Shown piece by piece: positions 17,959-27,971 of a stretch of 64,000 nucleotides of DNA (its first letter is position 1; the number at the start of each line of letters is the position of its first letter). A model generated the notes under the pieces. The model saw only the letters and a list, made by a program, of their open reading frames with translations. It did no database searches and was not told where the DNA came from. Source of the DNA: an uncultured delta proteobacterium (lineage in GTDB: Bacteria > Myxococcota_A > Polyangia > Fen-1088); assembly GCA_963767925.1 (NCBI GenBank), contig CAVYGB010000008.1, positions 2,304,001 through 2,368,000 on the forward strand, written 5' to 3'. Made by a program: the position numbers and the translations under genes.

Positions 17959-19205
17959 TCAGCCCTTCCGGAGCAGCAGGATGTGCTCGCGGCGAGGCTG
18001 CGAGCCGAAGATGACCCGCACGGCCGGGTCGCGCGGGGGCCGAACCTGCGAGGCGCGCGCCACCAGCGACAGGCCCGCCTCGGCGCCGGCCTCGGTGACC
18101 GCCCGGGCGGCGTCTTCGGGCTTTTTTCCCACCACCCCGTCGCCGACAACGAGCATCGCCAGGCCCGAAGGGCGCAGCACCCGGGCCATCTCCTCCAGCC
18201 AGGCCCGGCGGCCCTCCTGCCACAGCTCACGGACGGTGCCCGGACCACCCCGCCGCTCGCCGAGCTGGCGCTGGCGCAGGGTCTCGATCGGCAGACCCAG
18301 CCAGCGAAACCGGACGGCGTGTTGCTCGGCGTAGTCGTAGACCCCCGCGTAGGGTGGCGAAGAGAGCACCAGGTCGACCGAGCGCGCGCGGGCGTCCGGG
18401 TAGCTGCGGGCGTCGCCCAGATGGACATCAGCCCGGGGGGTCCCCTCCGGAGTCACGAGGGAAAGCTCGGCCAGGCCCGCCGCCAGCTCCTCGGCCCGCT
18501 CCGCGAAAAACCGGGAGGGAAAGCCCCGCGCGATCCGCTTGTCGAGGCCGTCCTGGGCGCCTCGGGTCCGGAGCGCATCAACTTGACGAGGAGGGAAGAG
18601 AGGCAGAGCCGGAGCGCCTGGCCCTGGGGCTCGTCGGCCGACGTCTCCATGACCGCCGCCCGCAGGGTGAACAGCTCGAGCGCGACGTGGGGGTGGTAGC
18701 GGGCGAAATCGAGGGGGGCCCAGCGTGGCAGCTGGGGGCGGATGCGCGCCCGAGCCTGGGCCCCCACCGCGCTGGCGATGGCCTTGGCCCGCTCGACCAG
18801 ATCGCGCCGCCAGCCCTCCGGCATGCGGCGAGTCCGCACGGTCGCGATCAGCACCGCCAGCGGGCTGGCGTCGACGCCGATAGCCTTGCGACCGGCCACC
18901 AGCGCCTCGACGAGGACCGTGCCGCTGCCACAGAACGGGTCGAGCACGGTCGCGCCCGGCGGAGTGAAGCGCCCGATGGCCCCCCGGGCGATCGAGGGGT
19001 GGAGCTTGCCCGCGTAGCTGTGAAAGCCGTGGGTCAACGCCCGTTCCAGCTTGAAGTCCACCGAGAAGATTTCGGCCAGGCTCTCGGCCTCCTCGGTCGA
19101 GCCCTCGGTCTCGACCGGGCCCCGGATCACGGAGAAGGCCCGGCGCTGGTGGGCGGCGGGCAGGGGGAACGGCCCGGTTCCGCGCGGGCGGGTCAACCGG
19201 TCCAT
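17959..19205 (-). CDS. Orphan amino (N4-C/N6-A) DNA methyltransferase (indel ~18450-18550)
   Basis: [10 protein letters not shown], motif [10 protein letters not shown], motif IV SSPPY; start overlaps the MoxR stop. Confidence 0.75.
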
Positions 19206-20410
19206 CGCGACGACTCGAAGACGCCCTCGAGGAGCTTGTCGACCTCGGCCAGCATCTGGCGGGCCGTCTCGCTCCCCAGCGTCGAGAGCGCCGCCCGGAT
19301 GTCCTGCAGGTTGCGGAGCTGGGAGAAGAGCTGCACGTCCGAGAGGGTCTCGCCCCCCAGCAGCAAGCGATCGGATCACCCCCAGCTCGGCCAGGACGGC
19401 GTCGAGATCGACGCTCGTCGCGCCCAGCCGCCGCTGCTCGGGGTTCTCGCGGTGGTGCCGTTCGAGCACCGGACCCACCAGATCCTTGAGCAGAGGCGCC
19501 TGATCGACCTGTTCCAGATGTGTTTGAGCACGAAGAAGTCCGCGTCGTTTACCACGCTCCGACCGTCGAGGAGCGCGTTGGCCGAAAAGAGCTTCAGCAG
19601 CTTCACCGCCCGCCGGTCGCTCACGCTCACCCCCTCGGACCGGATCTGGAAGAGGAGGCCCTTGTAGCGGGCCAGGAACTCCTCGGGGAAACGGAGCAAG
19701 GTCTCCATCCGCCCGTGGATGCGCCGGATCTCGCTCAGCGAGACCAGCGGCGCGATGCGCTCGTCGGCCCCGCTGGCGTGGGCGATCTCCGCCTTGATGC
19801 CCCGCTCGAGCAGCGCCAGGAAGTGGAAGCTGTCGAGGTTCTCGGACATGGCCCGGATGAGGAAGCGGTCGAACAGCGCCGCCAGGGCCTCGTCGTTGGG
19901 GATCTCGTTGGTGGCGCCGAACAGCGACCACAGCGGCACCTTGATGGTGGTGCTGCCGGTGAAGAAGCGGCGCTCGTTGAGGATGCCGAGCAGCGAGTTC
20001 AAGATCGCCGAGTTGGACTTGAAGATCTCGTCCAGGAACACGATCTCCGCCTCGGGCAACATCGCTTCGGTCCGGCGGACGTAGATCCCTTCCCGGAACG
20101 CCTTGATGTCGACCGGGCCGAACAGCTCGCTCGGCTCGGAGAACCGGGTCAGCAGGTATTCGAAGTAGCGGGCGTCGATGAGACGGGCCAGGTGTCGCAC
20201 CAGGGCCGACTTGGCGGTACCCGGCGGGCCGACGATCAGCATGTGCTCGCCGGCGATCAGCGCCACCAGCAGCAGCCGGATGAGCTCCTCCTTGTCGAGG
20301 AAGCGCTGACCGAGTGTGCGTCCTACCTCGCGCAGCTTGGCTCCCACCTGCATCGAGTCGCCATCGGCCGTGAGTGGCACGACCCGAGCGGATGGATCTT
20401 TGGGCGTCAT
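19193..20410 (-). CDS. MoxR/RavA-type AAA+ ATPase (indels near 3' end)
   Basis: GPPGTAKS, YLLTRFSEPSELFGP, FLDEIFKSNSAILNSLL, LFDRF, SDRR. Confidence 0.9.
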
Positions 20411-25569: not shown

Positions 25570-26769
25570 ATGTCCGAGGAAGGTTCTCCACTTTCGCTCG
25601 AGCAGGTGCGCGCGGCGGCGGCGGTGGGTCGGTTACCCGAGCTGGCCCGTCAGCTCGTCGCCGACCGCCGCTGGTCGTCGCTGGAGGTGCTGCTCTCGAT
25701 CTCCGCCACCCCGTCGCTGCCGCTCGAGGACGTGGTCGCGGCGCTGTCGGCGGTGCTGGCCGGGCTGGGCGAGCTCCCCGAGGCCGACGCCCGCGAGGCG
25801 GCGCTGGAGCTCCGCCAGGCCCAGCTTCACGCGGCCTCGGCCCTGGCGCGGCGGGCGGACCGCAACCCCCTGACCGAGCGGGAGCGCGGCGGCCTGCGCG
25901 CGTCGGCCGGGCTGCTCGCCGGGCTCGGCGAGCTGCGACGGGCGGCCGAGCTGTACGAGAAGGCCGGCGATGACGTTCATGCCGCCGAGACCTGGGGAGG
26001 GCTGGGCGAGCTGGATCGGATGGAGGTTTGCCTGGCCCGCGAAGAGGCCCGCCGCCAGGCGCGGCTCCGCATCGCCGAGGCCCGCCGTCGCTTCGAGACA
26101 CTCTCGGTGTCCGGCGAACGGCTCGAGGCGGTGCGCGCCGCCCTCGACGTCGGCGAGACCGATCTCGACAGCCACGAGCTGACCACCCGCAGCCGGCAGA
26201 TGGAGACCCGCCTCTGCCGTGGCCGGGGGGTCGGCCTCCGCCTGCCCGACGGGCGGGTGCTGGGGGTGGCCGGCCTCCCCGCCACCCTCGGTCGCGATCC
26301 CACCGTCGAGATCTCCATCCGCGAGCCGACCGTCTCGCGGCACCACGCCCGCCTGCTGGCGGTCGGCGCCGACATCGGGATCGAGGACCTGGGCTCACGG
26401 GGTGGCACCCGCCTCGGCGGATTTCCACTCGCCGGGCGGCTGGCCCTCCGGGGCGCGGGGGAGATCGCCCTCGGCGCCTCCTGCCTGCTGCGGTTCAGGG
26501 CGCTCGCCGGAGGCGTGCTGGAGCTGCGCGGGAGCACGGGCCTCGACCGCGAGCACTGGACCCTGGTGGGCACCGGCGAGATCGACGTCGGGCCGGCCCT
26601 CGGTCTCGCCACCTGGCTCCGGATCGCGTTCCGCAACGGGGTCGCCCGCCTGCAACGGCCGCTGGAGCTGCCCCTGCGGGTGGACGGTCAGCTCGTGGGG
26701 CTCGGCTGCGACCTGCTCCACGGCGACCGCATCGAGACGCCCTCCGGAGACCGCCTGGAGGTCCTGTGA
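25570..26769 (+). CDS. Helical/TPR-like plus FHA-domain protein
   Basis: LGRD, VSRHHA, EDLGSRGGT FHA motifs; AAELYEKAG helical repeat. Confidence 0.8.
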   Translation: MSEEGSPLSLEQVRAAAAVGRLPELARQLVADRRWSSLEVLLSISATPSLPLEDVVAALSAVLAGLGELPEADAREAALELRQAQLHAASALARRADRNPLTERERGGLRASAGLLAGLGELRRAAELYEKAGDDVHAAETWGGLGELDRMEVCLAREEARRQARLRIAEARRRFETLSVSGERLEAVRAALDVGETDLDSHELTTRSRQMETRLCRGRGVGLRLPDGRVLGVAGLPATLGRDPTVEISIREPTVSRHHARLLAVGADIGIEDLGSRGGTRLGGFPLAGRLALRGAGEIALGASCLLRFRALAGGVLELRGSTGLDREHWTLVGTGEIDVGPALGLATWLRIAFRNGVARLQRPLELPLRVDGQLVGLGCDLLHGDRIETPSGDRLEVL

Positions 26770-27971
26770 GCGCGCCGACGAAGGAGGATCCCCACCTCAC
26801 GGCGCTCGAGCTGCGTTTCGCTCAGGATCCGGAGGACCCCGACACGCGGCTCGAGCTGTTCGAGCAGCTGCTCAGCCGGGGCGAGCCGGCGGCGGCCCGC
26901 GAGCTGCTGCTGCCGCTCTCCGCGAGCCAGCACCCGCTGTCGGCCCAGGCGATCGCCCGCCTGGCCCGGCTCGACGAGCACGAGGGGCGCATCGCCGATG
27001 CGGTCCTTCGCTGGGAGCGGCTGCTGGCCGACGACATCGACCACGACCTGGCCTGGGCCCAGCTCGCCCGTCTCGGTCGGGCCAGCGTCACCGCGGCGGC
27101 CTATTCACCGGGCGTCTTGCCGGTGGCGGCGCCCACCCTGGAGTCCCCGGCCGGGGTGAGCTTCTCCCGGTTCGAGATCGTCCGGGAGATCGGCCGGGGC
27201 AGCTCGGCGACCGTCTACCTGGCGCGCGATCGGACCCTGGACATCGAGGTGGCTCTCAAGGTGCTCCACCCGCGGGCGGGCGACGTCGCCGACGCCGAGC
27301 TGGACCACCACTTCTTTCACGAGGCGCGGACCGTGGCCGGGCTCCGGCACCCCGGGGTGGTGGCGATCTACGATGTCGACGAGGGGGCCCGGACGCTCGT
27401 CATGGAGCACATCCCCGGCGGAACGTTGCGCGAGCGGCTGCGCGCGCCTTCCGGGGGTCCGACGGTCCGGCGGGGGCTGCCGGTCCCGGAGGTCCTCGCC
27501 CTCGGACGGCGGATCCTCTCCGCCCTCGCCTACCTGCACGAGCGGGGGGTCGTTCATGGCGATCTGACTCCCCGGAACGTCCTGCTGCGGGGACCGGCCA
27601 ACCCGGTCCTCGTCGACTTCGGGATCGCCCGTCGGGGCCCCGCCGGGGAGGAAGCGAGCGCGCCGCCGGCCGCAGGCACCCCCCTTTACCTCGCACCCGA
27701 GCGGTTCCGGGGCGCCCCCTCCTCGACCAGCACCGATCTGTTCGCGGTGGGGGCCCTGCTCTGGGAGGCGCTGGCGGGACACCCGCTCCGCACCCACGGC
27801 GACCTGGTGGGCCAGCGCACAGACAGCCGGCCGCTGCCCCGGGAGGTCGAGGAGGCGCTCGGCTCGCCGGAGCACCCGCTGGCGCGCATGGTCGCGGCGC
27901 TGACTGCCGCGAACCCCCGCCTCCGGCCCGACAGCGCCGGGGCGGCCCTGCGCGAGCTTGCCGGGCGCTGA
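26766..27971 (+). CDS. Ser/Thr protein kinase with N-terminal TPR-like region
   Basis: GRGSSATV, VALK, HGDLTPRN, DFG, GTPLYLAPE; GTGA overlap with the FHA gene. Confidence 0.85.
   Translation: MSAPTKEDPHLTALELRFAQDPEDPDTRLELFEQLLSRGEPAAARELLLPLSASQHPLSAQAIARLARLDEHEGRIADAVLRWERLLADDIDHDLAWAQLARLGRASVTAAAYSPGVLPVAAPTLESPAGVSFSRFEIVREIGRGSSATVYLARDRTLDIEVALKVLHPRAGDVADAELDHHFFHEARTVAGLRHPGVVAIYDVDEGARTLVMEHIPGGTLRERLRAPSGGPTVRRGLPVPEVLALGRRILSALAYLHERGVVHGDLTPRNVLLRGPANPVLVDFGIARRGPAGEEASAPPAAGTPLYLAPERFRGAPSSTSTDLFAVGALLWEALAGHPLRTHGDLVGQRTDSRPLPREVEEALGSPEHPLARMVAALTAANPRLRPDSAGAALRELAGR

Follow-up and report, generated by a model that had tools for sequence, protein, structure and literature searches.

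The window analysed here is a stretch of 64,000 nucleotides (nt) from the genome of an uncultured member of the class Polyangia (contig CAVYGB010000008.1), and its subject is a group of genes around an AAA+ ATPase of the MoxR family. We consider it fairly probable that a MoxR-vWA system made up of seven genes, found across Polyangia in single copy and sister to the simple FtsH ternary systems, is represented in the window by five of them. The full set would consist of a TPR-Ser/Thr kinase, an FHA protein, two proteins named here X502 and X408, a RavA-like MoxR, a vWA protein with a helical N-terminal half (hereafter ivWA-like) and a TPR/HEAT scaffold protein. Soil myxobacteria of Polyangia keep or lose this gene set as a whole. 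In the genome studied here the vWA/HEAT pair has moved 655 kb off, and two lipoprotein genes and a methyltransferase gene stand amid the rest, though they are not part of the set. The main result of this work is that all seven genes of the co-inherited system were recovered, together with its split state in this genome.

Genes were called from third-position G+C and homology in a region of 70-75% G+C. The eight adjacent genes of the window are the following (aa, amino acids):

17959..19205, minus strand: amino-methyltransferase (Pfam N6_N4_Mtase; frame split by one indel)
19193..20410, minus strand: MoxR/RavA-like AAA+ ATPase of the bpMoxR clade (Pfam bpMoxR; frame broken by two indels)
20508..21599, minus strand: exported vWA lipoprotein, CglB-like, 363 aa (Pfam VWA, lipobox LLASC)
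21648..22850, minus strand: X408 (400 aa), helical protein (predicted fold; family of stand-alone proteins)
22856..24364, minus strand: X502 (502 aa), fvmX7-like (homology to fvmX7/bpX2)
~24403-25558, plus strand: lectin-like lipoprotein with a DUF1349-like C-terminal domain (lipobox LAGC)
25570..26769, plus strand: protein with a helical N-terminal domain and an FHA domain (Pfam FHA)
26766..27971, plus strand: TPR and Hanks-type Ser/Thr kinase (Pfam Pkinase, TPR)

The layout described in an initial annotation of this DNA largely stood. X502, X408, the vWA lipoprotein gene, MoxR and the methyltransferase gene follow each other in this order as five co-oriented reading frames, spaced by 5, 48 and 97 nt, with the methyltransferase start overlapping the MoxR stop by 13 nt. 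The lipoprotein open reading frame (ORF), the FHA gene and the TPR-kinase gene diverge from X502 on the plus strand, the kinase GTG start overlapping the FHA stop by 4 nt. What did not stand is the integrity of two of the frames, those of MoxR and of the methyltransferase being broken in the assembly.

Linkage and co-inheritance across Polyangia

Loci were found via MoxR alignment and a profile was built for each gene. This yielded 90 distinct loci with an orthologous MoxR (14 from relatives and 80 from species-representative genomes, minus 3 duplicates and 1 without a full MoxR match). The relatives belong to the class Polyangia of the Myxococcota and include Sorangium cellulosum So ce56, Haliangium, Kofleriaceae, Sandaracinaceae and Nannocystineae. 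Among 41 related genomes, MoxR is present in 27 and X408 in the same 27, whereas X502, the ivWA-like protein and the FHA protein are each found in 26. The shortfalls concern genome G002, without X502 and the ivWA-like protein, and genome G011, without the FHA protein, and presumably reflect fragmented contigs. From the remaining 14 genomes, spread over several genera and families, all five genes are absent; the exception is one partial FHA match (G027), which spans no more of the profile than the FHA domain. Five of these 14 system-less genomes represent four genera of the window's own family. That the set was lost in several genera and families suggests that it is inherited together as a functional unit.

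All the genes are essentially single copy, X502 being present as a single copy in 26 of the 41 relatives. In a sample of 301 genomes of the phylum, X502 was found in 34, only 3 of them outside the class. MoxR identity is 92% within the genus, 70-81% within the family and 59-67% within the class; since it falls with taxonomic distance, the set appears to be vertically inherited.

Gene order gives a similar picture. Of the 78 loci with at least 3.2 kb of upstream sequence, 46 have X502 and X408 upstream of MoxR and co-oriented with it. In G024, G009 and So ce56 they remain together but apart from MoxR, next to the FHA and kinase genes in G024 and to the kinase gene alone in So ce56. The split in G010 is different: X408 is still next to MoxR, and X502, FHA and kinase are found on another contig. 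Orthologous arrangements are seen in many other Polyangia genomes, and chance does not account for the one in the window. The initial annotation had considered that these genes might prove unlinked in related genomes; in our survey of neighbourhoods the core genes recur and co-occur. Its link to phosphorylation signalling also holds, the FHA protein co-occurring with the core and the FHA and kinase genes being divergent neighbours of X502 in many genomes. In loci with a large gap between X408 and MoxR, the space is taken up by unrelated opposite-strand genes. Among three such loci (L042 8353-8865; L059 7887-8810; L062 7870-8784), one has an extracytoplasmic function (ECF)-type sigma factor gene and the two others genes for proteins of ~305 aa.

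Components of the set and genes lying among them

The ATPase matches Pfam bpMoxR with 258.6 bits (E 3.5e-77), as does an intact orthologue (259.4 bits), together with AAA_5 and AAA_lid_8. Its Walker A motif, GPPGTAKS at residue 61, has the GXXXTAKS form of the clade, and Walker B reads IVFLDE. These properties place it in the MoxR clade of FtsH and beta-propeller ternary systems, as had been suggested at first. Relatives with genuine FtsH ternary systems have MoxRs that the bpMoxR model matches too (190-201 bits), in agreement with the P-loop variant shared by the two kinds of system according to Kaur et al. (2020, PMC7159879). The closest solved structure is that of Escherichia coli RavA (E 2.7e-56, residues 22-320).

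X502 is supported as an fvmX7-like core component by profile comparisons. The window protein matches bpX2 at E 0.0025, below the cut-off, and 8 of 12 orthologues do so weakly, all under the cut-off (best E 3.2e-4). Two relatives, P0005 and P0062, come just over it (25.5 and 25.9 bits versus 23.6), and P0004 and P0005 pass Pfam fvmX7 (PF20005) with 38.6 and 46.4 bits for a cut-off of 24; these relatives passing fvmX7 and bpX2 are 34-37% identical to X502. The third family touched by X502 and its relatives is bpX3. Moreover, alignment with hhalign of a 43-sequence X502 profile to the genuine fvmX7 domain of G039 gave 91.6% probability (E 8e-7, 187 columns). The two have in common a GYRHP motif, conserved as GY(R/E)HP in the X502 family, and the homology to fvmX7/bpX2 occupies the C-terminal two thirds of the protein. 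The early description of this ORF as X7-like is thus borne out. Elsewhere in the genome no Pfam fvmX7 or ivWA match was detected.

The X502 model (predicted local distance difference test, pLDDT, 86.9) consists of three alpha/beta domains, and the protein, which has no membrane-spanning segment, is predicted to be cytoplasmic. Foldseek returned no PDB match at E <= 0.001, a PDB sequence search with the X502 profile gave nothing at E < 0.1, and no VIA-align structure match rose above noise. In the latter search the middle domain corresponded to a generic ferredoxin-like fold (best Z 7.6, within the noise range), and the N-terminal domain weakly resembled the C-terminal adaptor domain of MecA/YpbH (Z 6.4 and 5.3, within noise), which is to be taken as a lead only.

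X408 is a core component of the system without detectable homologue of known function. Its model (pLDDT 92.5, predicted template modelling score 0.87) is helical with a small sheet, and its family comprises 630 representative clusters, all of stand-alone proteins of ~350-450 aa. The protein has no Pfam, NCBIfam or PADLOC match, and none of eight orthologues has a Pfam match. In the PDB, Foldseek found nothing at E <= 0.001 and the profile sequence search nothing at E < 0.1; the best VIA-align fold match (Z 5.9) is within noise for helical proteins, and the ESM Atlas held no usable match. The initial annotation had seen in this ORF a likeness to X6, which did not survive. Comparison with a genuine fvmX6 by hhalign gave 0.2% probability, with the limited power of a single-sequence template, and fvmX6 (PF20004) has no match in this genome and exceeds the cut-off in one of the 41 genomes, at an unrelated locus. 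The search of the fvmX and bpX families proposed there was productive for the relatives of X502, which pass fvmX7 and bpX2, and returned no match for X408. A vWA domain hidden in X502 or X408 was also considered and is ruled out by the predicted folds.

On the plus strand, the FHA protein carries a predicted phosphothreonine-binding domain (Pfam FHA, E 4.7e-9). The kinase (Pfam Pkinase, E 1.5e-34, plus TPR) keeps VALK, HGDLTPRN, DFG and APE intact and, judged from these catalytic motifs, should be active. In all 13 loci with FHA beside X502, the kinase gene directly follows the FHA gene. No membrane-spanning segment was found in X502, the FHA protein or the kinase, the core proteins scanned. 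Convergent with the kinase gene lies a gene for a 610-aa protein without Pfam match (27975-29807, minus strand); it is also found beside the kinase in G015, G005 and G017 by tblastn and is perhaps another neighbour conserved with it.

In genomes of other families, MoxR is directly followed by a gene for a ~490-aa protein whose N-terminal half is helical and whose vWA domain is divergent, retaining DxSxS and having THG in place of TDG. Of the 78 loci with at least 2 kb of downstream sequence, 39 have an ivWA-like gene downstream of MoxR. Among 11 proteins of ~485-590 aa encoded downstream of MoxR, 7 gave weak ivWA, ivWA-helical_N or VWA_2 matches, all under the curated cut-off. The ivWA-like profile in turn matches genuine ivWA proteins (E 9.9e-12 and 2.3e-6), and finds nothing among PDB sequences at E < 0.1. 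The protein ends ~30-60 residues past the vWA domain. The next gene, coding for a TPR/HEAT protein of ~600 aa, follows the ivWA-like gene in 29 of 32 loci. In the genome studied here the two genes are located together at C8:1666983-1670198 (ivWA-like, C8:1668765-1670198), 655 kb from MoxR and beside folD. In some members of the family, genes for an MshEN-domain protein (of the cyclic di-GMP-binding type) and a 323-aa protein stand between the methyltransferase and the ivWA-like gene (e.g. L018 12978-14557, G009:C91).

This distant ivWA-like protein, and not the vWA lipoprotein encoded next to MoxR, would be the cytoplasmic cognate vWA of the ATPase. The lipoprotein has an intact metal ion-dependent adhesion site (MIDAS) motif (DRSSSM), conserved cysteines and the lipobox LLASC, and matches Pfam VWA at E 1.1e-5. 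It also scores 69.6 bits (E 2.4e-19) against NCBIfam gliding_CglB without reaching the cut-off of 200. As an exported protein it cannot serve a cytoplasmic MoxR as co-chaperone, the role first proposed for the adjacent vWA protein. Its gene is an insertion into the operon and not a component: apart from the window, only G001, G005 and G017 have it at this place between MoxR and X408, which makes four species.

The lectin-like lipoprotein, first thought to be a surface sensor, is likewise a species-specific insertion and not a component: in the same-genus genome G001, ~30 nt separate X502 from the start of the FHA gene, and the lipoprotein gene is missing there. The protein has a Pro/Asp/Ala-rich linker after its lipobox, and its DUF1349 match (E 6e-4) is below the cut-off. 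Its ORF shows a clear signal peptide and lipobox (24368-24460) with no in-frame ATG, GTG or TTG upstream; the start may involve another assembly indel or be non-canonical.

As for the methyltransferase, motif I (DPFCGSGT) precedes motif IV (SPPY, in SSPPYAGTYDY), and besides Pfam N6_N4_Mtase it matches PADLOC MTase_II (E 1.2e-30). The gene is single copy (66% mean column identity) and present in all 24 other genomes of the family that were searched, including the 5 without the MoxR system. It is also found in most other families of the class, and in other families it is unlinked to MoxR. In the window's family, it is wedged between MoxR and the ivWA-like/HEAT pair in 10 of the 18 loci that include a methyltransferase gene and have at least 2 kb of downstream sequence. 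The role of effector that it had been offered is not tenable because its distribution is independent of the MoxR set; it is a conserved orphan enzyme whose place after MoxR in this family is fortuitous. Kinship with MADS or BREX was examined and rejected, the PADLOC mad2, mad6 and mad8 matches being no better than the generic MTase_II and kinase models and the NCBIfam matches being generic. Nor, judged by its distribution, is the methyltransferase functionally tied to its neighbours, as would be expected in a restriction-modification or MADS system; for restriction enzymes the analysis covered the annotated ORFs.

The broken frames deserve a comment. With G001 as reference, MoxR has a 1-nt deletion near 19509/19510 and a compensating 1-nt insertion near 19366, so that the frame is lost after residue 300 and restored 48 codons on. 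The uncorrected ORF (19376-20410) encodes 344 aa, the final 44 out of frame, compared with 401-407 aa, about 405, in relatives. In relatives the methyltransferase is a single gene (405-431 aa); here a G is missing near 18553, which splits it. Adjoining it are parA and parB (16257-18014), both in several broken frames in this assembly, which has 13 contigs and 84% completeness. G024, another few-contig, low-completeness relative, shows similar breaks in its methyltransferase, vWA and HEAT genes. Because ParA and ParB are broken too, completeness is low and like breaks occur in G024, we take the indels to be assembly errors. Public sequencing runs included none with this stretch: five soil runs each contained 0.05-0.06 of the sampled words, and no RNA run was found. 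The order parA-parB-methyltransferase-MoxR is also that of G001, G005 and G017, in which a gene for a 577-aa protein with two DsbA/thioredoxin-like domains (14099-15832, minus strand, in the window) likewise adjoins parA.

Proposed working of the system and alternative explanations

The system is probably gated by Ser/Thr phosphorylation. The kinase would phosphorylate a component of the system, and the FHA protein would read the phosphothreonine and recruit or release the X502/X408/HEAT assembly. The MoxR hexamer, coupled via the MIDAS face of its vWA partner, would then remodel, assemble or disassemble the X502/X408/HEAT complex.

Several points weigh against this reading of the locus as part of a seven-gene MoxR-vWA system. 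The membership of X502 and of the ivWA-like protein rests on profiles built here, because the copies of this genome are under the Pfam thresholds: X502 does not reach E 0.01 with fvmX7 and the ivWA-like protein has no Pfam match at E 0.01. Neither X502 nor X408 is next to MoxR in 30 of 78 loci, and FHA and kinase genes are divergently placed beside X502 in only 13 of 40. The kinase is included by adjacency, kinases being too numerous for a count of phyletic co-occurrence. The relatives are not independent, so that the all-or-none counts overstate the number of independent co-losses, and the contacts between the proteins are a proposal from genes alone.

The role of the system can be read in two ways. 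We lean, with somewhat better than even confidence, towards an endogenous regulatory or assembly role, and give somewhat less than even weight to a mobile anti-invader system. The endogenous role is favoured because the set is single copy, conserved, vertically descended and devoid of effector, with housekeeping neighbours and modules dispersed over hundreds of kb; component ancestry and repeated loss of the whole system keep the defence reading alive. In its precise form the latter would make the seven-gene core an anti-invader system in which X502, X408 or HEAT is a non-enzymatic effector (acting e.g. by sequestration or dominant-negative assembly), MoxR-vWA sets a threshold and kinase/FHA provide the trigger, a scenario that we hold possible yet unlikely. 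The bpMoxR, ivWA and fvmX7/bpX2 families were indeed defined in predicted conflict systems, and beta-propeller systems are likewise described as devoid of conventional effectors (PMC7159879). The absence of the whole set from 14 of 41 relatives, and from 5 of 24 in the same family, also suits an accessory defence trait, and the canonical FtsH system of G039 has an FHA signalling protein beside it too. A mobile defence island would however be unusual in having its modules hundreds of kb apart amid housekeeping genes (parAB, FolD). The set is also single copy with an identity that tracks taxonomy, none of its components looks hypervariable (mean column identity 76% for MoxR and 58% for the ivWA-like protein), and PADLOC has no match for X502, X408, the FHA protein or the vWA lipoprotein. 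More speculatively, and in our opinion rather improbably, a former FtsH-type conflict system could have lost FtsH and effectors. It would have been domesticated in the Polyangia ancestor as a dispersed, phosphorylation-gated machine for cell fate or assembly (e.g. development or programmed death), with X408 as a lineage-specific new fold at its centre.

Adjacency itself suggests a larger unit, in which all eight neighbouring genes would form one system: lipoproteins sensing, kinase and FHA protein signalling, MoxR and the adjacent vWA protein remodelling and the methyltransferase acting as effector. Tight spacing, co-orientation, the MoxR/methyltransferase overlap and the recurrent position of the methyltransferase before the ivWA-like gene speak for it. 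This version is nevertheless very improbable and already contradicted by the phyletic data, namely the occurrence of the methyltransferase in system-less genomes and its lack of linkage elsewhere, the four-species range of an exported, CglB-like vWA lipoprotein and the absence of the lectin-like gene at this position in a genome of the same genus. At the other extreme, a chance juxtaposition of unrelated neighbours has almost nothing to recommend it. Linkage is partial, and the methyltransferase and the two lipoproteins are indeed unrelated neighbours; for the core genes chance is already rejected, the same partners recurring across Polyangia families with modules that swap places and five genes that are present all or none.

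Under the favoured seven-gene reading, the locus warns against trusting the adjacency of genes in one genome: three of the eight neighbours are bystanders, and two true partners lie 655 kb off. The variant is common (576 MoxR relatives in species-representative genomes, 630 X408 clusters) and present in the cultivated and sequenced Sorangium cellulosum So ce56. Its predicted component list is clean and backed by co-inheritance, with a Ser/Thr kinase and an FHA reader as the obvious input. It thus offers a practical entry point to what this clade of AAA+ chaperones does, and allows a test between an immunity device and recruitment for cell-internal regulation in multicellular bacteria.

Relation to known MoxR systems

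To our knowledge MoxR-vWA ternary systems are known only via comparative genomics, and we know of none with a demonstrated function. As described by Kaur et al. (PMC7159879), the simple FtsH ternary system has a GXXXTAKS MoxR, an ivWA fused to a large N-terminal helical domain and a third component with two FtsH-type AAA+ domains. The Polyangia set resembles it by the same MoxR clade, a helical-N ivWA-like protein and an fvmX7-related protein, and both kinds of system are present in myxobacteria. It differs by the lack of the double-AAA FtsH/M41 component, by the addition of X408, the TPR/HEAT protein, the FHA protein and the Ser/Thr kinase, and by its single-copy state, vertical inheritance and frequent dispersal over the chromosome. 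No double-AAA FtsH gene was found in the annotated loci, nor fvmX5, fvmX6, NEFF1 or radical SAM genes. The four Peptidase_M41 loci of this genome (three intact, of ordinary length, 633-666 aa, and a fourth frame-broken) are all outside the window. None is near either module, the nearest lying 172 kb from MoxR, in keeping with the initial remark that no FtsH-type component is nearby.

Genuine FtsH systems, with paralogous MoxRs (40-49% identity), occur in the relatives G023, G039 and G028. Two of them served as reference material: that of G023 (L029, G023:C323) comprises fvmX5, a 1062-aa protein, MoxR, ivWA and a double-AAA FtsH-M41, and that of G039 (L123, G039:C194) an FHA-histidine kinase, radical SAM, fvmX6, fvmX5, FtsH and an fvmX7-TPR fusion.

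Beta-propeller ternary systems, according to the same source (PMC7159879), carry a propeller after the vWA domain and accessory bpX domains; their third component has, besides a variable N-terminus, a membrane segment, TPR and a propeller. Similarly, the Polyangia set has a MoxR whose best Pfam match is bpMoxR (258.6 bits versus 190-201 for the FtsH-system paralogues), a TPR-bearing component and no conventional effector. X502 and its relatives touch bpX2 and bpX3, with bpX2 matches on both sides of the cut-off. On the other hand, neither the ivWA-like protein nor the 363-aa vWA lipoprotein bears a propeller, for which they have no room and no family match, and the repeat protein consists of TPR and HEAT without propeller match.

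The in-window vWA lipoprotein recalls the gliding-motility protein CglB of Myxococcus, likewise an exported vWA lipoprotein with conserved cysteines; below the equivalog cut-off, it is a paralogue at best, and has no demonstrated tie to MoxR. ViaA, the partner of RavA, combines a helical N-terminal domain with a C-terminal vWA domain. The ~490-aa ivWA-like protein resembles this layout, and RavA is the nearest relative of MoxR with a solved structure. Yet MoxR scores 182.3 bits against the NCBIfam RavA model (NF010054), for a cut-off of 681, and is not an equivalog. Its C-terminal part differs, and the five further conserved partner genes have no counterpart in RavA-ViaA. No publication on this set of genes came up in a search of the full-text literature that left aside the system tables of Kaur et al., where a prior listing is possible. 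From its gene content, the set appears to be a new variant among the MoxR-vWA ternary systems, lacking both FtsH and propeller.

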